From positions 1-41,484 of the IMG/VR virus record IMGVR_UViG_3300021399_000034: a stretch of DNA of 41,484 bases, one strand, 5' to 3'. Below the pieces are notes generated by a model that saw only the letters and a program-made list of their open reading frames with translations, did no database searches and was not told the DNA's origin. The position numbers were made by a program, and so were the translations under genes. The DNA comes from a virus. Positions 4,238 through 41,484 of this stretch are shown here, piece after piece (the stretch's first letter is position 1; every line of letters begins with the position of its first letter).

Positions 4238-4779
4238 ACAAATGGCAATCACCTGCATATGGAGTGCTCCCGGTTCCGATCGAGAAGATCAGGGCAAACG
4301 AATACAACCCGAATCACGTCGCACCGCCTGAAATGCGGTTGCTGTATGATAGCATCAAAGAGGATGGCTACACCATGCCGATCGTCTGCTACTACAATGC
4401 AGACGATGACATGTACGAAATCGTGGACGGGTTCCACAGGTATCAGACCATGCTGGACCACAAAGATATCTATGAGCGCGAGCATGGTATGTTGCCTGTG
4501 TCAGTAATCGACAAGCCGATTGACGAGCGGATGGCATCTACTATCCGTCACAACCGCGCCAGGGGATCCCACGATGTAGACCTGATGTCCGGCATCGTAG
4601 CGGAGCTGCACAAAATCGGCCGGTCGGATGCGTGGCTGGCTAAACATCTGGGCATGGACATGGATGAAATTCTGCGGCTGAAACAGCTCACCGGCCTGGC
4701 CGACCTGTACAAGGACAGGGAATTTTCCAAATCGTGGGAACCTGGGGAGGAGGTTACCGATGTTGATATCACTGGCTGA
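4234..4779 (+). CDS. IbrB-like ParB/Srx N-terminal-domain protein
   Basis: Internal ATG with SD AAGGAGGA. Motifs IRANEYNPNHV, IVDGFHRY and IRHNRARG are typical of the ParB-like nuclease/NTPase domain. It is translationally coupled to the IbrA-like gene. Confidence 0.78.
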   Translation: MNKWQSPAYGVLPVPIEKIRANEYNPNHVAPPEMRLLYDSIKEDGYTMPIVCYYNADDDMYEIVDGFHRYQTMLDHKDIYEREHGMLPVSVIDKPIDERMASTIRHNRARGSHDVDLMSGIVAELHKIGRSDAWLAKHLGMDMDEILRLKQLTGLADLYKDREFSKSWEPGEEVTDVDITG

Positions 4780-4945
4780 ATATGCGGAAATCTACGGTCG
4801 CGATCCGGCCACGGTAAGGCAGATGGCGCTGCGCGGCGGGTTTCAAACCGCGCGGAAAATAGGTAGAAATTGGGTAATTGAAGATTCGGAAGAGTATCCG
4901 GATCATAGAAAGAGAGGAGGAAAAAATGCAGATAAGCAGTTATGA
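4760..4945 (+). CDS. Small helix-turn-helix DNA-binding protein (excisionase/MerR-like HTH_17 type)
   Basis: 61 aa, SD GGAGGAGG, sequence ISLAEYAEIYGRDPATVRQMALRGG...GRNWVI. It overlaps the end of the IbrB-like gene. Confidence 0.6.
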   Translation: MLISLAEYAEIYGRDPATVRQMALRGGFQTARKIGRNWVIEDSEEYPDHRKRGGKNADKQL

Positions 4946-5060
4946 GGTTGGCAAAAAATATCCCAGCGCCATTTTGCATCAAGACGAAATAAAATTTGAT
5001 ATCACTGATGGCGGTGCAATCATTCCGAGCATGATTGTCATATTTGATAACAGGAGGTAA
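4926..5060 (+). CDS. Hypothetical small protein (44 aa), possibly a gene fragment
   Basis: ATG at 4926 preceded by a strong SD GAGGAGG, MQISSYEVGKKYPSAILHQDEIKF... The longer ORF-track version from 4878 lacks an SD. Confidence 0.3.
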   Translation: MQISSYEVGKKYPSAILHQDEIKFDITDGGAIIPSMIVIFDNRR

Positions 5061-5069
5061 TAAGAGATA

Positions 5070-5150
5070 ATGGCTAATGAACAGAATTTATTAAAAGGCG
5101 ACGAAGCGCATAAATTTACCCCCGAAGAAGCCTCGAAAGGCAGAAAGTGA
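5070..5150 (+). pseudogene. Truncated 5' remnant of a small-terminase gene (26 codons)
   Basis: MANEQNLLKGDEAHKFTPEEASKGRK* aligns with the N-terminus of the intact terS at 6388 (MAKKEDNLVKGDEAHKLTVEEQSKGGK...). Nucleotide similarity is also visible (aaaggcgacgaagcgcataaa versus aaaggcgatgaagcacataaa). Confidence 0.7.
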
Positions 5151-5160
5151 GACATAGCAA

Positions 5161-6387
5161 ATGGATAATATCAAGATAGAATATTTGCCCATAAAGGATT
5201 TAAAACCATACGAGCGTAACGCAAAGAAGCATGACGAAACACAGATTAAAAATGTGATGGAGTCAATTAAACAGTTCGGATTCGCACAACCATTGGTAGT
5301 TGATAAAGATAATGTTTTGATTATCGGTCATTGCAGATTAATCGCAAGTAAAAGATTGAAATTGAAAGAAGTTCCTGTTGTCCGTATGGATGAATTAACG
5401 CAGGAGCAGGTCGATAAATTAAGATTACTTGACAATAAGCTCAATGAAAGCGAATGGGATTTTGATTTACTTGCAGAAGATATTCCAACGCTTGATTTTA
5501 GCGATTTTGATATTGATTGGGGATTGTCCGAAGATATAGAAGAAAACACAGAAATCGAGGAAGATGAAGCGCCCGAACCACCAACAGAGCCAAAGGCAAA
5601 ATTAGGCGATTTGTATATGTTGGGAAATTCCCACCGCCTTATTTGTGGAGATTCTACGGATGTTGCGGTTATTGATAGGCTTATGGATGGGGTAAAGGCT
5701 AAACTACTTCTGACAGACCCACCGTATGGTATAAGTGTTGTATCTATTGACAAGAAGGTTGGTGGTGATAAACCATTTGGCAGTAAAGGCAAGGTTGGCT
5801 ATGGTCAAAAAGGGAAAAATAAAATACTTGATTGTAACGAATACGCTCCGATTATAGGGGATGATACAACCGATACAGCAAGAGCAAATTATGATGTCGC
5901 TTTGACTTGCACAGAAAATCAGATTATATTCGGCGGAAATTATTTCACAGACTTTTTGCCGCCGTCAAGGTGTTGGATTGTTTGGGATAAACAGAACACA
6001 GGAAATTTTGCTGATGCAGAATTGGCGTGGACTTCTTTTGATAAAGGTGTGAGGTTATATCATTTCTTGTGGAATGGCTTATGCCGTGAGGGTAGCAGAG
6101 AAGTAGAGGGTAAAACAAGAGTACATCCGACACAAAAGCCTGTCGGTATGCTTGCAGACATACTGAAGGATTTTTCAGAAGAAAACGACAGCGTTCTTGA
6201 TTGTTTCGGCGGTAGTGGTAGCACACTAATAGCCTGTGAGCAGTTAAACAGAAAATGCTATATGTGCGAAATTTCCCCACAATATATTGACGTAATCATT
6301 CAGCGTTACATAAATCTAAAAGGAACAGATAAAGACGTATTTTTGATAAGGGATGGACAGAAAATCCCCTACAATGAGGTTGAATAA
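5161..6387 (+). CDS. ParB-like N-terminal domain fused to a beta-class N6-adenine (or N4-cytosine) DNA methyltransferase
   Basis: The N-terminus has KPYERNAKKH and IIGHCRL (ParB-like). Motif IV is LLLTDPPYGI, followed by motif I LDCFGGSGST. An acidic linker lies between the domains. Confidence 0.88.
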   Translation: MDNIKIEYLPIKDLKPYERNAKKHDETQIKNVMESIKQFGFAQPLVVDKDNVLIIGHCRLIASKRLKLKEVPVVRMDELTQEQVDKLRLLDNKLNESEWDFDLLAEDIPTLDFSDFDIDWGLSEDIEENTEIEEDEAPEPPTEPKAKLGDLYMLGNSHRLICGDSTDVAVIDRLMDGVKAKLLLTDPPYGISVVSIDKKVGGDKPFGSKGKVGYGQKGKNKILDCNEYAPIIGDDTTDTARANYDVALTCTENQIIFGGNYFTDFLPPSRCWIVWDKQNTGNFADAELAWTSFDKGVRLYHFLWNGLCREGSREVEGKTRVHPTQKPVGMLADILKDFSEENDSVLDCFGGSGSTLIACEQLNRKCYMCEISPQYIDVIIQRYINLKGTDKDVFLIRDGQKIPYNEVE

Positions 6388-6741
6388 ATGGCAAAGAAAG
6401 AAGATAACCTTGTAAAAGGCGATGAAGCACATAAACTAACAGTCGAAGAACAGTCGAAAGGTGGAAAGGCATCAGCAGAAGCAAGGCGCAAGAAAAGAGA
6501 TTTACGTGAAGCCTTAGAAATGCTCTTAGAAAAGGATTTTAAAGATAAAAACGGCAATATATTAAGCGGTACAGAGGTAATCACAGCAAAGCTATTTGAA
6601 AAGGCATCAAAAGGCGATGTAAGAGCGTTTGAAACAATCAGAAGTACAGTAGGGCAAGACCCAGTGCAGAAAGTAATGATCGCAGAAGTAGACCAAAGCG
6701 TTATTGATGAGGTTGAAAGTGCTGTTTTGGGCGATGAATAA
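6388..6741 (+). CDS. terS: Terminase small subunit (putative)
   Basis: 117 aa, immediately upstream of terL. It has a basic KGGKASAEARRKKR motif. The start abuts the methylase stop (TAAATG). Confidence 0.6.
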   Translation: MAKKEDNLVKGDEAHKLTVEEQSKGGKASAEARRKKRDLREALEMLLEKDFKDKNGNILSGTEVITAKLFEKASKGDVRAFETIRSTVGQDPVQKVMIAEVDQSVIDEVESAVLGDE

Positions 6742-8064: not shown

Positions 8065-9513
8065 ATGCTGACATATCAAGACCTGCTTGCAATAGGAGAA
8101 AGCGACAAGGCAAAAATGGATTTCGTGCGCTCTGCTATTTTCAAGCATCAATCTACTGACCTCTACAGAAACGCAGTAATCGCTGATAAGTATGATAAAA
8201 AGCAGAACGTCACGATCATGGATTATCAGAAACTGCTTTACAAGGTCACTGGAGAAGCCGTTCCGGATAACTTCAGTGCAAACTACAAGATAGCATCAAA
8301 TTTCTTCTTCAGATTCGTTACGCAGGAAAGCCAGTATCTTTTAGGGAATGGCATAATGCTTGATGAGGATGAACTGAAAGACAGGCTCGGCAAGGACTTT
8401 GACGCAAGACTGCAGGAAGTAGGCAGGGATGCGCTTGTGGATGGAGTAGCTTTCGGATTCTGGAATAAAGACCACATGGAAGTGTTTCGGATCACAGAGC
8501 TTGTGCCACTCTATGACGAAGAGAATGGTGCGCTGATGGCGGCTATTCGCTTCTGGCAGATAGACCAGTCCAAGCCGTTAAGGGCAACGCTCTATGAGCC
8601 AGATGGATATACGGAGTACATCTGGAGGAAGAAAGACGATGGGGAGATATTAAAGCCGAAGCGTCAGTATATTCTCAAGACACGTTCTACGCCTCTTGAA
8701 GGCATGGAGATTTATGACTATGAGAATTATCCTACATTTCCGATCGTGCCTCTGTGGGGCAATACTGCGCATCAGAGCGAGCTCGTAGGAATCCGAGAGG
8801 CTATAGATGCGTATGATCTCATTAAGTCTGGATTCTGCAATACTGTAGATGAAGCAAGCCTTGTCTATTGGACAATCCAGAATGCAGGAGGCATGGATGA
8901 TATCGACCTTGCTAAGTTTGTAGAGAGAATCAGAACGCTCCATGCCGCCACAGTAGAGGATGATGGAGCAAAGGCAGAATCTCATACGCTTGATGTTCCG
9001 TATCAGAGCAGAGAAGCTTTACTCATGAGATTGCGCTCAGACTTGTACGATGATTTTATGGCTCTGGATACAAAAGAGATTGCAGGAGGTGCTACCACAG
9101 CCACGCAGATCAAGGCGGCTTATGAGCCTATTAACAGCAAGGCTGATATGTTTGAATACTGTGTCCATGATTTTCTGGATGGAATCTTTTTACTTGCGGG
9201 AATCGAAAGTGATGCCACATTCACACGCTCGATTATTGTAAACTCGCAGGAGGAAATCACGACAGTTATTTCAGCCGCCACATATCTCAGTTCAGAATAT
9301 GTCACTCGGAAGATCCTCATGCTTCTTGGAGATGGGGATAAGATTGATGATGTTCTAAAAGAAATGGATGAAGGCGAGGCAGAGATCTATCAGGACGAAG
9401 AAGATGAAGAAATGGAAGGAGAAGAAGATACTGGTCTTGATGATGAAGAAGATGAAGATGACGACATAGACGCTCAGCTTGATGCTCTGCTGAAAGAATT
9501 GGAGGACATGTAA
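8065..9513 (+). CDS. Portal protein (SPP1 gp6-like)
   Basis: 482 aa, follows terL, with a very acidic C-terminal tail (EDEEMEGEEDTGLDDEEDEDDD). Confidence 0.8.
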   Translation: MLTYQDLLAIGESDKAKMDFVRSAIFKHQSTDLYRNAVIADKYDKKQNVTIMDYQKLLYKVTGEAVPDNFSANYKIASNFFFRFVTQESQYLLGNGIMLDEDELKDRLGKDFDARLQEVGRDALVDGVAFGFWNKDHMEVFRITELVPLYDEENGALMAAIRFWQIDQSKPLRATLYEPDGYTEYIWRKKDDGEILKPKRQYILKTRSTPLEGMEIYDYENYPTFPIVPLWGNTAHQSELVGIREAIDAYDLIKSGFCNTVDEASLVYWTIQNAGGMDDIDLAKFVERIRTLHAATVEDDGAKAESHTLDVPYQSREALLMRLRSDLYDDFMALDTKEIAGGATTATQIKAAYEPINSKADMFEYCVHDFLDGIFLLAGIESDATFTRSIIVNSQEEITTVISAATYLSSEYVTRKILMLLGDGDKIDDVLKEMDEGEAEIYQDEEDEEMEGEEDTGLDDEEDEDDDIDAQLDALLKELEDM

Positions 9514-9944
9514 TGGCATACGCAAGCAAATATTATGATCCGGTAAAGCGACATGAGTATTACATGAAGCATAGAAAGCTAAAGGGAAAGAAAAGCAGAA
9601 CGTCTACTGCAGGTCTTAATGAAGATGGTAAGATTGCCGCTAAAGAAGTAAAAGAAGCAATTATGGCAGAGAAGAAAGCGTATCTTGAGAAGCAAAAAGG
9701 GATTATGAATAATCAGATTAAGTCCCTGCGTGAGAAGCTGAAAGCGATGTCTAAAGAAGAACGTAAGAAAAACAAAGAAAAGATACAGGAACAAATCAAA
9801 GGGTTACGTGCTTTATACAAGGATCACAAAGCCAAAGTCAAAGATTTTTACAACGAGAAATATGCGCAGGAATTAGACAAGATTAAAGCAGACAAGAGTA
9901 TGCTAAGGGCATATAAATCGAAGAAGAAAAAGAAGTCCTCATGA
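9513..9944 (+). CDS. Lys-rich coiled-coil protein, unknown function
   Basis: 143 aa. It is coupled to its neighbours at both ends (TAATG with the portal gene upstream; a 4-nt ATGA overlap with the next gene at 9941-9944) and lies between the portal and Mu-F-like genes. Confidence 0.6.
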   Translation: MAYASKYYDPVKRHEYYMKHRKLKGKKSRTSTAGLNEDGKIAAKEVKEAIMAEKKAYLEKQKGIMNNQIKSLREKLKAMSKEERKKNKEKIQEQIKGLRALYKDHKAKVKDFYNEKYAQELDKIKADKSMLRAYKSKKKKKSS

Positions 9945-11002
9945 GTAAATTCAGAAAAGGAAAATTAAAGTTATCTAAAGAAGAGCTTGAAGCATACGAG
10001 AGCATGTGCAAAGACATGGAAAAGAGGATTGCGAAAGAGTATGCGCAGGCAAAAAAGGAAGTCGCTGATAAAGCAGACGATTATTTCAGACGCTTTAAAA
10101 AGAAAGACGCTGTTTGGAGACAGTGGGTAGCATCAGGACAAAAAACCAAAAAGGAGTATCAAAAATGGCGGACTAATCAGATGGCAGTGGGCGAGAGATG
10201 GAAAGACATGCGTGATGTACTCGCTACCGATCTTGCGAACAGCGATAAGATTGCCGCCAGTATTATGAATGAGTATATTCCTGAGGCTTATGCCCTTGGT
10301 CACAATTGGGGCACTTACGAAGTCGAAGCAGATGCTAAAATCAACACCGGATACACGCTTTATAATCGTGAAGCGGTAGAGAAATTGATCAAAGAAGAAC
10401 CTAGTCTTCTGCCAAAAGCGAAAGTCAGCATTCCGAAAGATAAACTGTGGAACAGACAGCACTTAGACTCTGCTATTACGCAGGGCATTCTGCAGGGAGA
10501 AAGCATTCCTGATATTGCGAAGCGTCTTCAGTCCGTGACAGATATGAACCATAAGGCGGCACTCAGGAATGCCCGTACCATGACAGGATCCGCAGAAAAC
10601 GCAGGTCACATGAATGCTTATAAACGTGCTGAAGATATGGGGATTGAACTTGAGAAACAGTGGGTTGCTACGTTTGACAACAGGACACGAACTTCTCATA
10701 GAAATTTGCATGGAGAAACGCAGGAAATAAACACTCTGTTTTCAAATGGGCTGATGTATCCGAAGGATCCTAATGGACCGTCTGAAGAAGTGTATAACTG
10801 CAGATGCAGAGTTATCAGCAATGTGAAAGGATTTCAGCGTGATCTTTCCCCGATGTATGACGAAAATCTTATGGGAATGACATTTGAGGAATGGAAAGAC
10901 GCAAAGCCTGTTTACCAGAAGATCACTCATGGAGAGGAAGTCGCTGAAGCACAGAAGATGAGATATGTAAGGGAGTACAGGAATGGCAATCGGAAACGTT
11001 AA
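9941..11002 (+). CDS. Head morphogenesis / minor capsid protein (Mu F / SPP1 gp7 family)
   Basis: Signature VATFDNRTRTSHRNLHGE ... YNCRCRV. Confidence 0.85.
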   Translation: MSKFRKGKLKLSKEELEAYESMCKDMEKRIAKEYAQAKKEVADKADDYFRRFKKKDAVWRQWVASGQKTKKEYQKWRTNQMAVGERWKDMRDVLATDLANSDKIAASIMNEYIPEAYALGHNWGTYEVEADAKINTGYTLYNREAVEKLIKEEPSLLPKAKVSIPKDKLWNRQHLDSAITQGILQGESIPDIAKRLQSVTDMNHKAALRNARTMTGSAENAGHMNAYKRAEDMGIELEKQWVATFDNRTRTSHRNLHGETQEINTLFSNGLMYPKDPNGPSEEVYNCRCRVISNVKGFQRDLSPMYDENLMGMTFEEWKDAKPVYQKITHGEEVAEAQKMRYVREYRNGNRKR

Positions 11003-11312
11003 GGTTACCAGTCATGTTAATGAAGTCATATCAGCTAAAAATGGGGCAATTGCCCGTGCACTTGAGGCAATTGGAATACAGGCTGAAGGTGATGTCGCCA
11101 GTCTTGCTCCTGTGGATACTGGCAGATTGAGAGATTCGATCACGCACGAGACTCATGCAGAAGAGGAATCCGTGCATGTTGGAACAAATGTTGAGTATGG
11201 GAAATATCAAGAGTATGGAACATCCAGAATGAGAGCGCATCCGTTTCTCAAACCGGGCATCATGAACAATCTGGAAACGTATAAATCTATCGCAAAACAG
11301 TTTCTATCGTGA
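10983..11312 (+). CDS. HK97 gp10-like neck/tail-completion protein (out of its usual gene order)
   Basis: PVDTGRLRDSITHE ... YGKYQEYGTSRMRAHPFLKPG matches the gp10-family pattern. It is located before the scaffold gene instead of among the neck genes. Confidence 0.7.
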   Translation: MAIGNVKVTSHVNEVISAKNGAIARALEAIGIQAEGDVASLAPVDTGRLRDSITHETHAEEESVHVGTNVEYGKYQEYGTSRMRAHPFLKPGIMNNLETYKSIAKQFLS

Positions 11313-11365
11313 GACACAATTCTATACAATTTAGCTGTTAGAAAATTAACAATCTTACTTTTACT

Positions 11366-11400
11366 GAAAACCTACTGTCTTAGTAGGTTTTCTATTTTTT
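11366..11400 (+). terminator. Rho-independent terminator
   Basis: Stem GAAAACCTACT (11366-11376), loop GTCTT, stem AGTAGGTTTTC (11382-11392), then TATTTTTT. Confidence 0.75.
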
Positions 11401-11441
11401 ATATATTATTATAATTTTTTATTATTTTTTATAATGTATGA

Positions 11442-11527
11442 TGTAGGATAAAGGTACATTTTAGTAAAGTCCCTATAGAGCAAAAAATATATAGAAAGTT
11501 TAGTAAAATGTACGATTATCCTACACT
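11442..11527 (+). repeat. Inverted-repeat element, copy 1 (86 bp)
   Basis: The left arm TGTAGGATAAAGGTACATTT (11442-11461) is identical to 30757-30776. The right arm AAAATGTACGATTATCCTACACT (11505-11527) differs at one base from 30821-30843. The two arms are imperfect reverse complements of each other. Confidence 0.85.
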
Positions 11528-11571
11528 GCTTTTGTCTGACAATTTTAGTGACAGATTTTTTTTAAATGCCG

Positions 11572-11600
11572 TTGTATTTTTTTTGCATGAATGTTAAAAT
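11572..11600 (+). promoter_or_regulatory. Promoter for the scaffold/capsid/tail operon (extended -10)
   Basis: TTGTAT (11572-11577), a 17-nt spacer, then TAAAAT (11595-11600), with TGt at 11592-11594. Confidence 0.55.
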
Positions 11601-11647
11601 AGCTGTGTCTGAATGACAAAGAACCGTCTACGAAGGAGAGGAAGACA

Positions 11648-15684: not shown

Positions 15685-17907
15685 ATGGCTACCAATGTTT
15701 TTGACCTTGTAGCAAAACTGACACTGGATTCCAGTGATTACGATAGCAAATTAAGTGGAGCGGAAAGTAAAGCAAATTCTTTCGGCTCTGTTCTTAGTGG
15801 TGGTCTGAGTACAGTTGCAAAAGTAGGTGCGGCGGCTGTGGGAGCGGCTACAACCGCAGTAGTGGGCTTTGCTAAAAAATCTCTTGATGCAGGTATGTCA
15901 TTTGATGCTTCAATGTCAAACGTATCTGCTATTTCAGGTGCGGTTGGAGCAGATTTTGATGCACTGCGAGACAAGGCTCAGGAAATGGGTGCGTCCACGA
16001 AGTTCACTGCTACCGAAGCCGCAGACGCAATGTCGTATATGGCTATGGCCGGTTGGAAAACTGGAGATATGCTTGATGGTATTTCAGGCATCATGAATCT
16101 TGCGGCGGCATCCGGTGAAGATTTGGCTTTGACATCTGATATTGTCACTGATGCATTGACTGGATTTGGTCTTAAAGCGTCTGACTCTGCTCATTTTGCT
16201 GATATTCTTGCGGCGGCATCAAGTAACGCAAATACGAATGTTTCGCTTATGGGCGAGACTTTCAAGTATGTTGCGCCTGTTGCAGGGAGCATGGGAATTA
16301 GCGCAGAAGATGCGGCTGAGAGCATTGGCTTGATTGCAAACGCAGGTATTAAAGGATCACAGGCAGGTACGTCATTGCGTTCGATCATCACAAGACTTGC
16401 TACTGATGCAGGAGCGTCAAGTAAATCTCTTGGCGCATTAGGAATCTTAACTGAAGAGTTAGGTGTTCAGTTTTATGACACCGAAGGAAACGTCAGAGAT
16501 TTTAGCGACATTCTTGATGAATCAAGGGTAAAGTGGCAACAGTTAAGCGATGAAGATGCTTCAACTTTTGCTAAAAAAATTGCAGGACAGGAAGGTATTT
16601 CTGCGTGGCTTGCATTGATGAACTCAGCCCCGGAAGATGTAGATAAATTACGAGAATCTATTGATCATTGTTCTGATTCGGCTGATGGATTCAACGGAAC
16701 TGCAGAACGTATGGCGGCTACAATGCAGGATAATCTGCAAGGATCAATTACGATTTTTCAGTCTGCTCTTGAGGGCGTTCAGATTGCATTTTCCGATATG
16801 GCTACGCCTGCGTTAAAGGAGTTTGTGGACATAGGGACAGAAGGTCTGTCAGGTGTGGCAGAAGCACTGAAGCAAGGTGATTTCAATGGCGCAATGGATG
16901 CTTTTGGGCAAGTTCTTTCTCAGGGACTTGCAATGATTACTGAAAAACTTCCTCAGTTTATGGATGCAGGAATGAAATTGCTTGAAGCGTTAGGACAGGG
17001 TATCATGCAGAATATTCCAATGCTTACGCAGACTGCAACGCAAATCATCCTTATGCTTGCGCAATTTATCATTACGAATTTGCCACAGCTTTTAACAGCG
17101 GCAATTCAGATTATAGTTACCTTAGTGCAGGGAATAGCACAGGCGTTACCACAGTTGATACCCGCCGCAGTACAAGCAATATTAACTATTGTTCAGACGT
17201 TAGTTGATAATTTCCCTATGATTATTGACGCGGCATTACAGTTAATAATTGCGTTTACAGAGGGCATTATCAATTCGCTACCTGAACTGATTGATAAAGT
17301 TCCAGAAATCATTATAGCGATTGTCGATACACTTGTCGAAAATTTCCCGAAGATTGTAGAAGCGGCATTTAAGCTAATCGTAGTACTCGCTACTGCGCTG
17401 ATTGACAATATTCCAGAGATTGTAAATGCAATTCTTAAAATCAGAGAAGAAATCAACGCAAAATTCCAAGAGATAGTCAGTCAAGCATTATCGTGGGGTG
17501 CTGATTTAATAAGCAATTTTGTTAGCGGTATTAAAAATGGCTTTGGCAAAATTAAATCCGCCATGTCTGGTTTGGCAAACGTGGTTAGAAGCCACATCCA
17601 TTTCTCGGAACCGGATGTCGGTCCGCTGTCTGACTTTCATACCTACGCGCCAGACATGATGAAACAGTTCGCCAAGGGAATTGACGAAAATCTTCCGCTC
17701 GTTGAAGACAGCATGAATCGAATGGGCAACATGATTCGTGGCAATATGCAGTTCAGCACAGAAGGCGTGAATCGTGGCGCAACGTACAACGGCGGTATTA
17801 CTATCAACGTATACGGTGCAGAGGGACAGAACGTTAGAGAACTGGCTCGTGAAATCGAGAAGATTTTCACATTGCAGGATAATCAGAGAAGGGCGGCTTA
17901 CGCATGA
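15685..17907 (+). CDS. Tape measure protein
   Basis: 740 aa, Ala/Gly-rich N-terminus, repeated helical LPQL/FPxI segments, located after the chaperone. Confidence 0.88.
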   Translation: MATNVFDLVAKLTLDSSDYDSKLSGAESKANSFGSVLSGGLSTVAKVGAAAVGAATTAVVGFAKKSLDAGMSFDASMSNVSAISGAVGADFDALRDKAQEMGASTKFTATEAADAMSYMAMAGWKTGDMLDGISGIMNLAAASGEDLALTSDIVTDALTGFGLKASDSAHFADILAAASSNANTNVSLMGETFKYVAPVAGSMGISAEDAAESIGLIANAGIKGSQAGTSLRSIITRLATDAGASSKSLGALGILTEELGVQFYDTEGNVRDFSDILDESRVKWQQLSDEDASTFAKKIAGQEGISAWLALMNSAPEDVDKLRESIDHCSDSADGFNGTAERMAATMQDNLQGSITIFQSALEGVQIAFSDMATPALKEFVDIGTEGLSGVAEALKQGDFNGAMDAFGQVLSQGLAMITEKLPQFMDAGMKLLEALGQGIMQNIPMLTQTATQIILMLAQFIITNLPQLLTAAIQIIVTLVQGIAQALPQLIPAAVQAILTIVQTLVDNFPMIIDAALQLIIAFTEGIINSLPELIDKVPEIIIAIVDTLVENFPKIVEAAFKLIVVLATALIDNIPEIVNAILKIREEINAKFQEIVSQALSWGADLISNFVSGIKNGFGKIKSAMSGLANVVRSHIHFSEPDVGPLSDFHTYAPDMMKQFAKGIDENLPLVEDSMNRMGNMIRGNMQFSTEGVNRGATYNGGITINVYGAEGQNVRELAREIEKIFTLQDNQRRAAYA

Positions 17908-30386: not shown

Positions 30387-30719
30387 TTGATAACGGAAAA
30401 AGATTTGCAGGAAGCAATAGCCGAGTGTCAAGGGACACGCAACCCAGATGCCCGAACCTGTATCAAGCTTGCGGCATACTTGACGATCAAGGAGCATTTA
30501 TATCCACAGGTTGTTGAAAATGATTCTTCTGCGATTCCAGTTTACTCTTATGCCGAACCGCCCTCTGTAGAATACACAGGTGATAGCGTGTTTTCTCAGT
30601 CGGTATCCGGCAAGGACATGACTGAGGTGTGGAAGATCATGGATGAGCTGATGGACACACTGCAAGTGATTCAGCCTCGGCTATATGATAGCGTTATTCG
30701 GAAGATAGACAGCATTTAG
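30387..30719 (+). CDS. Hypothetical protein (110 aa)
   Basis: TTG start after AAGGCGGTGA. It contains the motifs AIAECQGTRNPDARTCIKLAAY and MDELMDTLQVIQPRLYDSV. It is the last gene before a terminator. Confidence 0.55.
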   Translation: MITEKDLQEAIAECQGTRNPDARTCIKLAAYLTIKEHLYPQVVENDSSAIPVYSYAEPPSVEYTGDSVFSQSVSGKDMTEVWKIMDELMDTLQVIQPRLYDSVIRKIDSI

Positions 30720-30736
30720 CTGTCTATCTTTTTTTT
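30703..30736 (+). terminator. Rho-independent terminator
   Basis: AGATAGACAGC (30703-30713), loop ATTTA, GCTGTCTATCT (30719-30729), then T7. It overlaps the stop codon of 30387..30719. Confidence 0.85.
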
Positions 30737-30744
30737 ATTCTTCT

Positions 30745-30843
30745 GTGTAGGATAAGTGTAGGATAAAGGTACATTTATATAAAATGTCTATAGAAAAAAT
30801 AGTCCTATAGGGATTTTATGAAAATGCACGATTATCCTACACT
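30745..30843 (+). repeat. Inverted-repeat element, copy 2 (87-bp core plus an extra tandem GTGTAGGATAA)
   Basis: GTGTAGGATAA occurs twice in tandem (30745-30755 and 30756-30766). The left arm 30757-30776 is identical to 11442-11461. The right arm 30821-30843 matches 11505-11527 at 22 of 23 bases. Confidence 0.85.
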
Positions 30844-30890: not shown

Positions 30891-30919
30891 TTTACATCAT
30901 GCCTTGATGGTGGTAGTAT
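30891..30919 (+). promoter_or_regulatory. Early promoter P2
   Basis: TTTACA (30891-30896), a 17-nt spacer ending TGGTGG, then TAGTAT (30914-30919). It is paralogous to P3 at 38368-38396. Confidence 0.6.
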
Positions 30920-30986: not shown

Positions 30987-31166
30987 ATGACATTAGGTGA
31001 GCGGATGGTAAGATACCGAGCCAAGAATCGGATCACGCAGACAGAGTTGGCTCAGAGATGCGGAGTTACTCTCCAGACCATCTCAAATGTGGAGCGAGGG
31101 ATTCAAGACCCAAGCAGGGTCACAGTTCAGAAGATTGAACTGGTAATTGATGAAGATCAGCAGTAA
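30987..31166 (+). CDS. XRE-family (Cro-like) HTH transcriptional regulator (59 aa)
   Basis: MTLGERMVRYRAKNRITQTELAQRCGVTLQTISNVERGIQDPS... SD AAGGAGG. It is below the ORF-track cutoff. Confidence 0.8.
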   Translation: MTLGERMVRYRAKNRITQTELAQRCGVTLQTISNVERGIQDPSRVTVQKIELVIDEDQQ

Positions 31167-31192: not shown

Positions 31193-31540
31193 ATGCTGAA
31201 TATTACAAGTCATAACGGGGAATCAAAAATTAAGGTTGAAGGAAGCATCATAGAGATTACATACGATCCGGTAAGAGGACTGATTAAGTTTAAGTCTCTT
31301 GCAGAGCAGAATGAGATGTGCGCAGATATGCTGTTAGGCTTCTGCAAATACGCACTTCCGAAATTAGCCGATCCAGAGGTTGATCTGGATGAGGCTGCGA
31401 AAGAGCACAGGAAAGCCGCACAGGAAGAAGCCAAGAAATCATCTCTGAAGCAGATCATCAAGGAAATGATCAAGGATGATGATGGGCTGATTAAGACAAT
31501 CAGAGATATTCTGGATGATCTGGAGGATGACGGCAAATGA
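31193..31540 (+). CDS. Hypothetical early protein with an acidic C-terminus (115 aa)
   Basis: Strong SD AGGAGGA. It ends MIKDDDGLIKTIRDILDDLEDDGK. Confidence 0.65.
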   Translation: MLNITSHNGESKIKVEGSIIEITYDPVRGLIKFKSLAEQNEMCADMLLGFCKYALPKLADPEVDLDEAAKEHRKAAQEEAKKSSLKQIIKEMIKDDDGLIKTIRDILDDLEDDGK

Positions 31541-32301
31541 AGTACAGTATTTCAAGAATAAAACTCTTCAAGTCTTGTAGGAGAGCGTATGAGTTGAAAT
31601 ACATCGAGGGTCTGGAGCCAGTCCAGAAAGCGGATTCGCTCCAGACAGGACTCAGCTATCATGCGAAGATAGAAGAGTTCTACAAGACAGGCGAAGTTCC
31701 GCAGGATGAAGACATTAAGACTACGGCAATGGCGATGGCATATGTTAAATACATTGCTCCGACAGTCAAGATTGTGGAATGTGAAAAGTGGGTTGAATGG
31801 AATCCGAATAGTGCGATCTATAAAGACAGTCTGATAGGTCGCATAGATGGAATTACTGAAGACGGGGTGCTTGTGGAGCACAAAACCACATCGGGAGAAA
31901 TTGGCGAAGATTATGAGTACATGCTTCAGTGGGATGAGCAGTTACTGGCATATATGCTCATGACAGGCGCAAGAGAGATGTGGTATACGGTATGTCGTAA
32001 GCCTACGATCAGACAGAAGAAGAACGAGACTGATGAAGAGTTCCTGCGGAGATGTGTAGAGTGGTTTGATGAAGATACGGACAGTAAGATCAAGCTGATG
32101 TCTATACAGAGAAGTGACGAGGAAGTTACCGAATTTAGGTATGAAATCGTGCGCATGATGGCGTTAATTGATGAAGCCAAACACTACTACAAAAACACGG
32201 CATACTGCAAGCATTGGGGACGCATGTGCGATTATGCAGGAGTGTGTTTGCATTACGATCCTAAGCAGGAATATGTCGATTATGAAAGGGTGAAAAGATG
32301 A
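31537..32301 (+). CDS. PD-(D/E)XK nuclease, Cas4/RecB-exonuclease-like with a 4-Cys cluster
   Basis: N-terminal Cys (FKSCRRAY), GRIDGI...LVEHKT (D...ExK), and C-terminal CKHWGRMCDYAGVC. Confidence 0.8.
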   Translation: MKYSISRIKLFKSCRRAYELKYIEGLEPVQKADSLQTGLSYHAKIEEFYKTGEVPQDEDIKTTAMAMAYVKYIAPTVKIVECEKWVEWNPNSAIYKDSLIGRIDGITEDGVLVEHKTTSGEIGEDYEYMLQWDEQLLAYMLMTGAREMWYTVCRKPTIRQKKNETDEEFLRRCVEWFDEDTDSKIKLMSIQRSDEEVTEFRYEIVRMMALIDEAKHYYKNTAYCKHWGRMCDYAGVCLHYDPKQEYVDYERVKR

Positions 32302-33029
32302 ATATAAAGAGCCTTAACGAAGCCAAAGTGGACAATACTTATACAGCATTATTTTATTGTCCGCCCGGAGTGGGAAAGAGCACGGCAATAGGCTTGATTG
32401 CAGAAGCAAGTGAGGGCAGAACGCTTGTGCTTGATGTGGATAGGACGATCACAAAGACGCTTGCGAAAAAAGAGGTGGTCAAGGATACCAGTAAGATTCT
32501 TCTGGAACAGATCGATAACATCAATACATTTGATGAGTGGACGAAGACGCTGAGTGAGATTGATATCATGTATCATAATGGTGAACTGAAAAAGATGAAT
32601 GTGCGTACAATCGCAGTCGATAACATCTCGGAACTGCAGAGGTGCATTCTCAGTGATCTCGGCTCAAAGGGCAAGAATAAAGGCGTTCCTGCTATGGGAG
32701 ACTATCAGTATATGCAGTTCAAATTAGTGAACAGCCTGAGGATGATGAAATCTTGGGGAGTGAATATAATTTGGACAGCATGGGAAACCACAGAGCAGTT
32801 TACGAACCCGGACGGAAATCAGTATAGCCGTTTGTATCCTCAGTGTTCAGCAAAGATCGTAGATAATATCTGCGGACTATGCGATGTGGTCGGAAAAATC
32901 TTTGTAAACAAAGATGGAGTTCATGGCATCCAGTTAGAAGCCACTCAGAATGTTTACGCAAAGAATCAGATCGACAGTCGTAAGGCTTGCAGGATCGAGG
33001 ACTTTGTGAATTTTAGGAGGGCTGAATAA
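32298..33029 (+). CDS. RecA-fold AAA ATPase (Sak4-like recombination protein)
   Basis: Walker A FYCPPGVGKST and Walker B-like TLVLDVD. Its context with a Cas4-like nuclease and a DUF669-like protein supports the call. Confidence 0.7.
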   Translation: MNIKSLNEAKVDNTYTALFYCPPGVGKSTAIGLIAEASEGRTLVLDVDRTITKTLAKKEVVKDTSKILLEQIDNINTFDEWTKTLSEIDIMYHNGELKKMNVRTIAVDNISELQRCILSDLGSKGKNKGVPAMGDYQYMQFKLVNSLRMMKSWGVNIIWTAWETTEQFTNPDGNQYSRLYPQCSAKIVDNICGLCDVVGKIFVNKDGVHGIQLEATQNVYAKNQIDSRKACRIEDFVNFRRAE

Positions 33030-33181
33030 TGTGGAAAGTTATTATTGGTCAGATCGGTGGAAGAGTTCAGTTTGGTTTTAATGAAATGAGTGATGCATTG
33101 GATTTTGCAAGCACGTGTGCAGAATGCGGTGATAAAGGTACTATCATTACGATTCTTGAAGATGAAGATGAGGAGGATTAA
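33029..33181 (+). CDS. Hypothetical small acidic protein (50 aa)
   Basis: MWKVIIGQIGGRVQFGFNEMSDALDFASTCAECGDKGTIITILEDEDEED*. SD AGGAGG. It is below the ORF-track cutoff. Confidence 0.45.
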   Translation: MWKVIIGQIGGRVQFGFNEMSDALDFASTCAECGDKGTIITILEDEDEED

Positions 33182-33184
33182 AAC

Positions 33185-33616
33185 ATGGCTTGGAATTATC
33201 AGAGAGAGGAACAGCAGTTTCAGCAGATTCCAGAAGGTAGGTATCGCATCAGAGTGAAGTCGGCAGAGAAAGCCGTTTCCAAAAAAGGAAACGATATGCT
33301 TGCGCTTCAGTTCGAGGTTTCTGGAAAGACGCAGATTCTTTACCATTACATCAGTTTCTTGGATGACCGTCCGGAGATTACGAACAGGATGCTCACAGCG
33401 TTCTTCGACAGCTTTCCTGCTATTGAAGAGGGCGACTTCAACATGGCTCACTGGATTGGCAAGGCAGGAGCTTGCATGGTGAAGCATGATGAAGACGGCA
33501 GAGCCAGAATCAGCTATTTCATTAAGGCTGACAAGCAGGGTGATCTTCCTGCATGGCATGATGCAGGCAATGATCCAGTAGTCTCGGGAGCAGATGACTG
33601 GACACCATTTGACTAA
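33185..33616 (+). CDS. DUF669-like putative ssDNA-binding protein
   Basis: 143 aa. IPEGRYRIRVKSAE...MLALQFEV, with an SSB-like acidic tip DDWTPFD. It follows the Sak4-like ATPase. Confidence 0.55.
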   Translation: MAWNYQREEQQFQQIPEGRYRIRVKSAEKAVSKKGNDMLALQFEVSGKTQILYHYISFLDDRPEITNRMLTAFFDSFPAIEEGDFNMAHWIGKAGACMVKHDEDGRARISYFIKADKQGDLPAWHDAGNDPVVSGADDWTPFD

Positions 33617-33669
33617 GGCTTGAAAGAGGGCTCTGGGAAACCAGAGTCCTCGATTTTTCAGAGGTGGAT

Positions 33670-34032
33670 ATGAACAACAAAAAGTTAGGGACAGCGTTTG
33701 AGCGGGAGATGGTGAAGATTCTATCAGAGAATGGATACTGGGTACACTTCATCAGTCCAGACAACAGAGGCGCACAGCCTTTTGACATCATAGCAGTTAA
33801 GAATGGAATTGCTCTGGCGGCAGACTGCAAGACCTGTGAAGATCATATCTTTAGAATCAGCAGACTTGAATGGAATCAGAGGCTTGCTTTCCAGAAGTGG
33901 ATTGACTGTGGAAATGTGATGCCAGTTATTTTCGTGAAATATCATCATAATGAGAAAATTTGCATGATTGATTATGACAGGCTCGTGAAAGACGAAAAGG
34001 TGGATTTGAATGAAATTTCTGGTTGGCAATAA
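33670..34032 (+). CDS. Holliday-junction resolvase (Hjc-like PD-(D/E)XK)
   Basis: GTAFEREMVKIL...GAQPFDIIAVKNG...AADCKT. I prefer ATG 33670 over the GTG at 33664. Confidence 0.65.
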   Translation: MNNKKLGTAFEREMVKILSENGYWVHFISPDNRGAQPFDIIAVKNGIALAADCKTCEDHIFRISRLEWNQRLAFQKWIDCGNVMPVIFVKYHHNEKICMIDYDRLVKDEKVDLNEISGWQ

Positions 34033-35389
34033 AATCATTGCGAAGGGAGTTACAAGAGAACTTCATAATTGGTGCATGGACAATCTGGTGCTGTTCAATC
34101 CAGACTACGCCAAGAAAGAGCGCATGGGTCTGTGGACTGGTAGCACTCCAAGGAATATCTTTCTCTATGAGAAGAATGGCTCAGACTTGATTCTTCCGTT
34201 CGGATGTATAGCGCAGTTAAGGTCAAGGTTCCCAGATGCCCAATTTATGGCTCAGAATCGCCCCAGAATCGCTTTTAACTATCGTTCCCATATTTCTCTA
34301 TACCCATACCAAGAGAACGCAGTCTTGAAGGCGCTAGAGGGCAAAAATGGCATACTCGTCATGCCGTGCGGAGCAGGAAAGACGCAGACAGGTCTGGAAG
34401 TGGTTGCCAGAATAGGCGGCAGGGCGTTATGGCTGACCCATACGCAGGACTTACTGAATCAGAGCATGAACAGGGCGAAGTCAGTATTCGGATGTCCTTT
34501 GAGCAGTTACGGAACGATCACTAACGGTAAGGTGAATATTGGAGAGGGAATCACATTCGCCACAGTGCAGACTATGAGTAAGCTTGACCTTACTGAATAC
34601 AAAGATTTTTGGGATGTGGTAATTGTGGATGAATGTCACAGAGCCATTGGATCACCTACGAAGGTGATGCAGTTTTACAAGGTGCTTTCTAACTTGTCAT
34701 GCAGATACAAGTTCGGTTTGACAGCCACACCGAAAAGAGCAGATGGTCTTGAGAAAGCGATGTTTGCTTTGATAGGTGATGTACTCTGTGAGGTATCTAA
34801 AAAAGAGGTCGCCAATACAACGTGTCCTGTTGTGGTCATAACTATGGAGACTGGGTACAAGCCGAATACAGACATGGCTCTTGCGGGAGATGGAACGATT
34901 AACTACGCGGGGCTTGTGAATGATCTTACTCATGACGAGAAGCGAATGAAGGTCGTATCGGAAGTGCTGAATCATAACTGCAATGCGGCTACGCTTGTGC
35001 TTTCGAACAGGGTAGAATATCTCAGACTGTTGCAAAGAGAGTATCAGCGTGATTCAGTGTGCTTATCTATGCTTGGGAACAGCAAAGCCGCAAAGGCAGA
35101 ACGGAAAGAGGCTCTTAGAAAGTTGAATGATGGAGAGATAAGTTGTGTCTTTGCTACGTATGCCTTGGCTCGTGAAGGACTCGATGTGCCAAACTTGCGA
35201 TATGTAGTATTTGCTACGCCAGAGAAAGACCCTACAACTATTCAACAGGCATCTGGGAGAGTCGGCAGGAAAGCAGATGGAAAAGAGTTTGGGACGGTCA
35301 TAGATTTCGTAGATGATTTTGGTATGTATTATGGTTGGGCAAGCAAGCGCCAGAAGACATATCGAAAACTTGGATACGATTTATGTTGA
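34010..35389 (+). CDS. DEAD/DEAH-box SF2 helicase
   Basis: Walker A MPCGAGKTQT, motif II VIVDECH, TATP, and a helicase-C region with QQASGRVGR. Confidence 0.85.
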   Translation: MKFLVGNKIIAKGVTRELHNWCMDNLVLFNPDYAKKERMGLWTGSTPRNIFLYEKNGSDLILPFGCIAQLRSRFPDAQFMAQNRPRIAFNYRSHISLYPYQENAVLKALEGKNGILVMPCGAGKTQTGLEVVARIGGRALWLTHTQDLLNQSMNRAKSVFGCPLSSYGTITNGKVNIGEGITFATVQTMSKLDLTEYKDFWDVVIVDECHRAIGSPTKVMQFYKVLSNLSCRYKFGLTATPKRADGLEKAMFALIGDVLCEVSKKEVANTTCPVVVITMETGYKPNTDMALAGDGTINYAGLVNDLTHDEKRMKVVSEVLNHNCNAATLVLSNRVEYLRLLQREYQRDSVCLSMLGNSKAAKAERKEALRKLNDGEISCVFATYALAREGLDVPNLRYVVFATPEKDPTTIQQASGRVGRKADGKEFGTVIDFVDDFGMYYGWASKRQKTYRKLGYDLC

Positions 35390-35430: not shown

Positions 35431-35646
35431 ATGACAAAAACAAAGAAGGTTGAAAGTAAAAAACAGAATCCTGATATATGTTTTCGCACTGAGACGGGCT
35501 ATGATGTCCGTCTCAGGTGGGAAGGTGCTGAATATAGGGCGCAGATGGATAAGCATAAAGGAATGGGTTTTGTTGATATGAGACTTGGATCATGCAATCC
35601 TGAGCCGTTGAAAAAGTATATTTTAGAAAGGAGAAAAGATGGCTGA
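35431..35646 (+). CDS. Hypothetical small basic protein (71 aa)
   Basis: ATG 35431 (the ORF track uses the GTG at 35422). It overlaps the start of the next HTH gene. Confidence 0.5.
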   Translation: MTKTKKVESKKQNPDICFRTETGYDVRLRWEGAEYRAQMDKHKGMGFVDMRLGSCNPEPLKKYILERRKDG

Positions 35647-35818
35647 CGAAAAGTGTTATAACATCATTAAAACTGCAGAACTGCTTGGTATTAAGGTGCG
35701 AACGGTAAGGCAGTGGATAAGGGATGGTAAGATTAATGCCTTCAAGTACGATGTGAGCAACAGATGGTTTATTCCTGAAAGCGAGATTACGAGGCTGAAG
35801 AATGGTAACAAGGATTGA
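35639..35818 (+). CDS. Small HTH DNA-binding protein (excisionase/MerR-like HTH_17 type, 59 aa)
   Basis: MADEKCYNIIKTAELLGIKVRTVRQWIRDGKINAF...RWFIPESEI. SD AAAGGAGAAAA. It is below the ORF-track cutoff and is a paralogue type of 4760..4945. Confidence 0.65.
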   Translation: MADEKCYNIIKTAELLGIKVRTVRQWIRDGKINAFKYDVSNRWFIPESEITRLKNGNKD

Positions 35819-36072
35819 GAACATTCCAAATAAGTATACCGTTTATATGCATATTACTCCAAGTAACAAACGATATATTGTGATAACTTGTCAGGATGTC
35901 CAACAAAGATGTATCGATGATGGACAAGTATTTGAGAGCATGACTGCGGCAGGAAAAGAGTATGGAATCAATAAAACGCTAATATGCAGGGGCTTGCAGT
36001 GGAAGGAATAAAACTGCAAAAGGATTGCGTTTTGAATATGTAAACAAGGAGGAAAGTAAAGAAAATGTATGA
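35802..36072 (+). pseudogene. Decayed free-standing GIY-YIG/NUMOD-type homing endonuclease
   Basis: The N-terminus YTVYMHITPSNKRYIVIT has the GIY-X10-YIG pattern. The catalytic core is missing. A NUMOD-like FESMTAAGKEYGINKTLI follows. The expected C-terminus ACSGRNKTAKGLRFEYV is readable only in the +1 frame (35983-36072). Confidence 0.6.
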
Positions 36073-41367: not shown

Positions 41368-41484
41368 GTACATGATAGTAATCTACACTCAGAACAGGCA
41401 AGCGGTCTGGAACTTCGCGGACATATCGCGGTTCCATGTAACTGGCAATGGGACGGGGATACAGGCGGTGGCAAAAAACGGAGC
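41368..41484. repeat. Right copy of the exact 117-bp terminal direct repeat
   Basis: Identical to 1-117. It contains the duplicated start (ATG 41372) of ORF 5..184. Confidence 0.9.

Follow-up and report, generated by a model that had tools for sequence, protein, structure and literature searches.

The window analysed was the whole of IMG/VR record IMGVR_UViG_3300021399_000034, a complete phage genome of 41,484 nt (~41.5 kb) in which bases 1-117 recur at 41368-41484. Nearly all of its genes are on the plus strand. The portal, MuF and scaffold proteins belong to the Pfam families SPP1_portal, Phage_Mu_F and Phage_scaffold. The MuF gene (9941-11002) is followed by a neck/gp10-like gene (10983-11312) and then by a 335-bp non-coding break before the scaffold gene. 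This break holds the first of two copies of a palindromic element, and the second copy lies ahead of the early/replication operon. A scan of the window for tRNA and tmRNA genes found none, and no Rfam family matched it at the gathering score. The region had no blastn match among 50,697 deposited phage genomes. The features at both copies and the early proteins discussed below are as follows.

11366-11400, plus strand: intrinsic terminator closing the packaging/portal/MuF/neck operon; 12-bp stem at 11366-11392 with 4 GC pairs, then a T-run
11393-11441: T-rich tract, 96% AT by base composition, on the "left" side of the element; candidate DNA-unwinding element
11442-11458: left 17-bp box of copy 1, TGTAGGATAAAGGTACA (TGTA-N9-TACA), placed by the invariant TG.A and TACA alignment columns
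11459-11508: core of copy 1 from the alignment, 78% AT; inner palindrome TTTTAG.AAAGTCCCTATAG / CTATAG..ACTTT...AAAA with an A-rich centre
11509-11525: right 17-bp box of copy 1 from the alignment, TGTACGATTATCCTACA
11572-11600, plus strand: promoter-like TTGTAT-17-TGTTAAAAT ahead of the scaffold gene (11648)
30700-30740, plus strand: intrinsic terminator closing the late/accessory block; 14-bp stem and T-run
30745-30756: extra direct copy of the outer motif before copy 2 (GTGTAGGATAAG; GTAGGATAA at 30747-30755), 11 bp from the next motif
30755-30843: copy 2, with boxes at 30757-30773 and 30825-30841 and a core of 80% AT, from the alignment and the covariance model
30891-30919, plus strand: early promoter-like TTTACA-17-TAGTAT with TG, from the promoter scan
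30987-31166, plus strand: XRE/Cro-like HTH protein, the first early gene (PF01381, E = 1e-11); alternative putative binder
31537-34032, plus strand: exonuclease, Sak4-like annealing protein, SSB and Hjc-like Holliday-junction resolvase, from gene scans
36065-38347, plus strand: primase-helicase of 760 aa with prim-pol, D5_N, SF3 ATPase and Pox_D5 C-terminal regions (Pfam, including DUF5906); proposed binder of both copies

All 86 bp of copy 1 (11442-11527) form a single imperfect palindrome, in which a 12-nt loop separates 36-nt arms of 83% complementarity. An earlier note on this DNA had described an 86-bp element with arms of 20 and 23 nt. The element is real, but its palindromy was understated. 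Copy 2 (30755-30843) is an imperfect palindrome with 39-nt arms that are 82% complementary. The two copies aligned on the same strand with an E value of 1.6e-17. Their 20-nt left arm is identical and their right arm matches at 22 of 23 positions, exactly as the note had reported. Similarity searches and the covariance model both gave a genome-wide count of exactly two, with covariance model R1 scores of 97.8 bits for copy 1 and 83.2 bits for copy 2. Both copies are intergenic and they are separated by 19 kb. One is 5.2 kb upstream of the primase-helicase gene and the other ~14.5 kb downstream of it around the circle. The invariant TGTA/TACA tetramers, two per side and short as iterons go, surround a core of 78-80% AT. 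In the folding check that the note had proposed, copy 1 proved far more stable than shuffled sequence both as RNA (-32.5 kcal/mol, z -9.0) and as DNA (-19.3 kcal/mol, z -9.2). Predicted hairpins of the element were very stable on both strands (z -8 to -11).

The surroundings of the two copies were largely as first described. The terminator after the gp10-like gene, with its 12-bp stem and T-run, and the very AT-rich tract that follows it were both confirmed. The most AT-rich 60-bp segment of the whole genome starts at 11380 (92% AT) and contains this tract. The order terminator, element and promoter also held at copy 2 (terminator 30700-30732, promoter-like site 30891-30919). The extended -10 promoter proposed at 11572-11600 is present in the sequence but scored 8/12, under the threshold of the scanner. 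At the equivalent place relatives have stronger TTGACA-type or extended -10 sites. In both window copies the boxes end 45-48 bp upstream of the -35 site and do not overlap the -35 or -10. A ribosome-binding site directly adjoins the element in G002 and L309, where the element must therefore overlap or follow the promoter. A promoter formed from -10-like hexamers in the left outer arm (TATAAT, GATAAT), with a start at TACATTTT, was rejected since its position and sequence were too variable. A leftward promoter through the right arm (TTGTCA-16-GATAAT) was rejected for want of a conserved -35 in the sequence by copy 2. The element was also rejected as a terminator because the T-run after the hairpin is not conserved.

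Two other statements of the earlier note did not hold. The 335-bp break had been called unusual. Bacillus phage SPP1 has a gap of 336 bp (4728-5064) after gene 7 (MuF) which contains oriR, and since the head-gene families are shared the break corresponds to the known oriR slot. The gp10-like gene had been called out of position. It follows MuF in nine of the ten relatives compared, so its position is normal for the group.

Relatives were recovered via the capsid protein, the conserved inner-arm pattern and the primase. Exact-motif scans of IMG/VR with the outer arm or an inner-arm 16-mer gave mostly chance single matches, and true relatives were recovered only by a longer inner-arm pattern and profile searches. 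The homologous elements found in related rumen-type phages form a conserved family. The consensus has a fixed orientation: a T-rich tract, then one to three direct TGTAG(G)ATAA-like motifs and a 17-bp TGTA-N9-TACA box, after which come the inner arm TTTTAG.AAAGTCCCTATAG, an A-rich centre, the inner arm again in inverted form and the second 17-bp box. The invariant outer-arm columns in a 12-sequence alignment are four tetramers, TG.A / TACA. The outer arms vary among phages yet remain palindromic, with 84% of cells pairing. Double-change cells numbered 26 compared to 14.6 ± 2.9 in shuffles, and none of 500 shuffles reached the observed value. Among mismatched cells there were 15 G-U and 11 A-C, with no excess of G-U. 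Palindromy kept without a G-U bias points to a constraint on duplex DNA or symmetric binding and not on one RNA strand.

The AT-rich tract is part of this conserved arrangement. The tract side of the element is 86% AT and 59% T while the other side is 63% AT with no strand bias (18 copies in 12 records, namely the window genome, five relatives and six partial contigs). The tract keeps to the same side of the element regardless of the direction of the element relative to the genes. A copy adjoins the most AT-rich 60-bp segment of the genome in each of the five genomes examined for this. The inner-arm pattern had 25 matches in 185,579 bacterial and archaeal genomes. None of the 25 passed the profile, which gives no evidence for a host-borne or mobile element.

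A covariance model was built from the family, genomes were oriented by their genes and orthologues were mapped. Exactly two copies were found by the model in each of four near-complete relatives, in the same two slots. Relative G005 had one full copy and a half-site. Site 1 was always in the MuF/neck-to-scaffold gap; in G002 it was before the neck gene, 23 nt from the ribosome-binding site of that gene. Site 2 separated the early operon from the last gene of the late/accessory block. The orientation of sites 1 and 2 was +,+ in the window, +,- in G001, G002, G004 and L125, and -,+ in G003. Further copies at site 2 were mostly in the minus orientation. In L295 and L303 the element is directly downstream of the primase gene with no XRE gene beside it. 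The L303 copy has the primase gene on one side and the terminase genes on the other, and 3.5 tandem TTGTTAATAT repeats adjoin it. In L295 the element is followed by its AT tract and then by a strong promoter.

Every protein of the window was compared with ten relatives, five with the element and five without. All five element-bearing genomes encoded the XRE protein, Sak4-like annealing protein, SSB, Hjc-like resolvase, SF2 helicase and 760-aa primase-helicase (61-75% identity), and four of them the exonuclease of the early/replication module. The five element-free genomes were without the replication genes from exonuclease to primase, and the only XRE-like match (44%) was in the incomplete G010. 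The major capsid protein (61-71%) was common to four of these five, and G006 also shared TerL and TerS (72%). Much of the accessory cassette was present in element-free G006, G008 and G009, including the sigma-r4-like protein (27175). Orthologues of this protein, 62-67% identical, occur in relatives without the element, and it is thus an unlikely binder, although it had been put forward as one. The element was present in only two of the 80 loci closest by major capsid protein. Wherever a primase-relative locus covered a slot, it had either the element or a diverged palindrome that shared its TGTAG...CTACA ends. As judged by its distribution the element tracks the replication module and not the capsid module. 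Site 1 is ~20 kb from the replication genes, in a head module that recombines independently, so linkage alone does not account for their co-occurrence. A functional connection with the replication module appears to do so, and the shared ancestry of a small clade could be behind part of it.

The primase-helicase was present in every genome carrying the element. Its best PDB relative was SaPI5 PriRep5 (7OLA) with an E value of 2e-40, aligned over residues 5-271 and 406-722 of 760. The closest cultured relatives of the protein are annotated "P4 family primase". No co-variation was seen between primase C-terminal identity and the variable sequence of the outer arms; TGTAGGATAA is found in L299 and G002 as well as in the window, at a primase C-terminal identity of only 50-58%. 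The XRE gene is adjacent to site 2 in most genomes. It was not detected in L299, and small HTH proteins are hard to detect. A small HTH_17 protein (35639-35818) was missing from G003 and G005. Phage_rep_org_N, the G38P-family replisome organiser, was not found among the early/replication genes scanned in the window.

The closest parallel in layout is phage SPP1. It has two origins, oriL and oriR, each made of repeats and an AT-rich unwinding element and both bound by gp38. SPP1 oriR lies in a segment that has transcription signals on either side and breaks up the head genes, with gene 7 (MuF-like) before it and gene 11 (scaffold) after it (PMC6316719, PMC3485210, PMC5737612). In the SPP1 model a fork stalled at oriR is restarted by a toolkit of exonuclease, annealing protein, SSB and resolvase type (PMC3485210). 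The window and SPP1 are alike in having two distant copies of a repeat plus AT-rich unit per genome, with one copy in a MuF-scaffold gap bracketed by a terminator and a promoter. They also share head-gene families, a 5'-3' exonuclease, an annealing protein, an SSB and a Holliday-junction resolvase, and a layout with all or nearly all genes on one strand. They differ in the initiator: SPP1 uses the G38P replisome organiser together with a loader and a helicase of the DnaB type, and the window a primase-helicase. SPP1 oriL is inside the initiator gene whereas neither window copy is. SPP1 has direct AB-box arrays instead of one long imperfect palindrome, and its copies are ~12-13 kb apart compared to 19 kb in the window.

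The closest parallel in initiator is found in the SaPI/PICI elements. PriRep5 is a self-loading initiator-helicase whose C-terminal winged helix binds oppositely oriented short iterons around AT-rich DNA (PMC9371898; bioRxiv 10.64898/2026.10.17.759575). The initiators are homologous, with the primase, D5_N and SF3 ATPase regions aligning, and the tetramers of the window element, candidate iterons at most, also run in opposite directions around AT-rich DNA. The SaPI/PICI origin is right after the rep gene, a position matched by relatives L295 and L303. The window in contrast has two copies, neither beside the primase gene. There are 6-12 hexamer iterons in SaPI/PICI origins but ~4-5 tetramer boxes in the window element, and the main AT tract of the window is beside the boxes and not only between them. 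A further parallel is satellite phage P4, with a primase-helicase initiator of the same broad family and two separated cis sites. The P4 alpha primase-helicase uses ori and crr, which carry the same octamer iterons 4.5 kb apart. The sequences and layout of these sites are unrelated to those of the window element.

On this comparison the element is most likely of a familiar kind and not a new gene switch or RNA. The two palindromes with their AT tracts are on balance probably a paired replication-origin-type site bound by the primase-helicase of the phage itself. The C-terminal domain of this protein would bind the TGTA-N9-TACA boxes. Once bound it would melt the AT-rich DNA and load itself, as SaPI Rep/PriRep proteins do at origins. 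Copy 2 is placed ahead of the early/replication operon and copy 1 in the portal/MuF-to-scaffold gap, the slot of SPP1 oriR. By analogy with SPP1 one copy may fire as an origin. The other may be a second origin or an initiator-bound fork barrier. Such a barrier would pass replication to the exonuclease, Sak4, SSB and Hjc-like resolvase, giving concatemers. Counted against the origin interpretation are the distance of both window copies from the primase gene and the mutual arrangement of the copies, which is inverted in five relatives and direct in the window. Cumulative GC and AT skew in six genomes was monotonic with no origin signature, the GC skew being driven by the coding strand. A more elaborate version, which is rather improbable, is a programmed pair of non-equivalent copies. 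One would fire while the other acted as a polar initiator-bound fork trap, or as a cruciform cut by the Hjc-like resolvase. This would force the switch from circle-to-circle replication to concatemers, with direction and timing set by the relative orientation of the copies.

Replication origins are almost never annotated in metagenomic phages. If the paired-origin interpretation is true, the boxes, the one-sided AT tract and a PriRep/P4-type primase-helicase could together be used to identify origins across a large group of phages from rumen and gut. It would also account for a puzzling non-coding break in head operons, and the concept of a second origin within the head module, known from SPP1, would apply to another initiator family as well. 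The element would then be a compact palindromic substrate for studying DNA recognition by self-loading SF3 helicases. The interpretation brings no new principle.

The main rival is a paired operator, which is unlikely. Here dimers of the XRE/Cro-like (30987) or HTH_17 (35639) protein would sit on the 17-bp boxes and control the adjoining early and late promoters, possibly by looping between boxes. The position of both window copies 45-48 bp upstream of promoter-like sites agrees with this, as do the XRE gene as the first gene after copy 2, its presence in all element-bearing genomes, and the arrangement in G002 and L309, where the element overlaps or follows the promoter. The size and symmetry of the boxes are like those of 17-bp phage operators. 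The lambdoid OL/OR operators of Cro/CI also consist of 17-bp partly symmetric boxes in two operon-head regions with an XRE-type gene adjoining one. The window boxes, however, do not overlap the predicted -35 and -10 sites and are 50 bp apart, compared to 3-7 bp in OL/OR. They have a one-sided AT tract attached, and this fixed-side tract is not constantly between element and promoter. The element appears to relocate with the primase gene and not with XRE: in L295 and L303 it follows the primase gene with no XRE nearby. XRE went undetected in L299 and HTH_17 is absent from two element-bearing relatives. In G010 the motif of the analogous slot also occurs inside the initiator gene, which is an origin trait. 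An operator or a dual role is nevertheless conceivable, as a Cro-like dimer would fit the boxes and the early genes begin with XRE. The earlier note had listed a paired operator for a phage regulator among the possible functions. A paired DNA site for protein binding is right in kind, but by comparison the element belongs with the replication module and its primase-helicase and not with transcription regulators. The observation in that note is real and its interpretation partly supported.

The remaining explanations have less in their favour. Recombination at the element is quite improbable, whether through cruciforms that the Hjc-like resolvase cleaves to initiate recombination-dependent replication or through homology linkers that swap the 19-kb late block among phages. 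The copies are long palindromes with stable single-strand DNA folds at module junctions, and the resolvase, Sak4 and, in four of five genomes, the exonuclease co-occur with them. Arms that are just 82-83% complementary with fixed mismatches would hinder cruciform extrusion, though, and the conserved tetramer boxes and one-sided AT tract indicate sequence-specific binding. The late block is the same in element-free phages, so its exchange is independent of the element, and the earlier suggestion that the copies are exchange boundaries for this block gained no specific support. An RNA element is very improbable. The hairpins predicted for either strand are very stable, pairing is maintained via double changes, and the 5' leader of the following gene would include the element in G002 and L309. 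Such an element would be a long hairpin on leader or read-through transcripts that served for RNase III processing (as at T7 R sites), as a 5' stabiliser or as a small RNA; an RNase III stem and a small RNA had been suggested in the earlier note. The position of most copies between an intrinsic terminator and the next promoter speaks against it. The direction relative to the genes flips among genomes and sites, G-U cells are in no excess over A-C, and Rfam gave no match. A co-occurring replication module 20 kb away would be needless for an mRNA element. A selfish MITE-like element with terminal inverted repeats is scarcely credible. It would fit the inverted TGTAG...CTACA ends and the AT-rich surroundings. 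There are at most two copies per genome, always in homologous slots, with no target-site duplication seen in the flanks and no evident transposase partner, and the bacterial and archaeal search yielded no true copy.

Relatives with other initiators appear, from their sequences, to follow the same origin logic as that proposed for the window. G010 encodes a G38P-family replisome organiser (E = 8e-34); a GTCACGTGAC motif occurs within the organiser gene and again, as an array, between the MuF and scaffold genes. The high-GC relative G007 encodes a prim-pol-helicase with a winged-helix tail. Its scaffold gap contains a different 50-bp palindrome with TGCAAC repeats, and a 90%-identical copy is ~800 bp downstream of the prim-pol-helicase gene. 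A homologous initiator is found in Listeria phage PSA, whose primase is 46% identical to that of the window and belongs to the same Sak4-helicase-SSB-primase-resolvase module. Iterons of AACTATCCACC in both orientations surround AT-rich DNA in the 288-bp gap after the PSA primase gene, the iteron block being at 34461-34714 of the PSA record. Judging by these iterons, the PSA origin is probably located after the primase gene.

The two copies of the approximately 90-bp imperfect palindromic element in the window (11442-11527 and 30755-30843) are in direct arrangement relative to each other. The copies are mutually inverted in five element-bearing relatives (G001, G002, G003, G004, and L125). Both copies were flipped in G003 and their mutual inversion was nonetheless retained.

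Two relatives lacking the element encode other initiators and contain other repeats, listed here in gene-oriented coordinates.

Repeats in G007 (contig of L032) and G010 (contig of L033)
G007, 8371-8420: 50-bp palindrome, GTGTTGTATTGCATTGCA...TGCAATGCAATGCAACAC, first copy
G007, 31946-31995: second copy, 90% identical to the first
G010, 5488-5497: GTCACGTGAC motif inside the Phage_rep_org_N (G38P-family) gene
G010, 16692-16923: array of about a dozen GTCACGTGAC copies in two clusters, in the MuF-scaffold gap

G007 is a high-GC relative (64% GC) whose prim-pol/AAA_25 helicase has a winged-helix tail of the MarR type. The G007 palindrome is flanked by TGCAAC/GTTGCA repeats, and the TGCAAC hexamer is identical to the SaPI5 PriRep5 iteron. 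The layout of G010 is similar to that of SPP1, with GTCACGTGAC located within the G38P-family gene and the array located in the MuF-scaffold gap.

Repeats were also present beside the element or the primase gene. In L303, a relative with the element directly after its primase gene, TTGTTAATAT is repeated 3.5 times in tandem with a period of 10 bp (11440-11480). These repeats adjoin the element, and the interval that holds them is bounded by the primase and small-terminase genes. Listeria phage PSA (NC_003291) encodes a homologous primase. An unannotated 288-bp gap 3' of this gene contains five or more AACTATCCACC motifs at 34461-34714, some in each orientation, with an AT-rich stretch between them. 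The gap resembles an origin, so far unmapped, in a cultured phage.

At the second G001 site (L210, 4620-4760) the minus strand carries a perfect extended -10 (TGTTATAAT), located past the inverted element and directed back at the late operon. A bidirectional terminator lies approximately 110-130 nt beyond it. This promoter-terminator pair could produce a short antisense transcript including an anti-Shine-Dalgarno stretch (CCUCCUUUC).

The neck/gp10-like gene (10983-11312 in the window) immediately follows MuF, a position kept in nine of ten compared relatives. The G002 element is upstream of this gene, and the late unit there therefore seems to begin with it.

Direct repeats in the window
5076-5147: 72-nt repeat, in the short region preceding the ParB-methyltransferase gene
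6397-6468: 72-nt repeat, 74% identical to the other copy, at the beginning of ORF 6388-6741, immediately upstream of TerL
1-117 and 41368-41484: perfect direct terminal repeat of 117 bp

The record contains 41,367 unique bases. It is a complete genome, circularly closed or terminally redundant.
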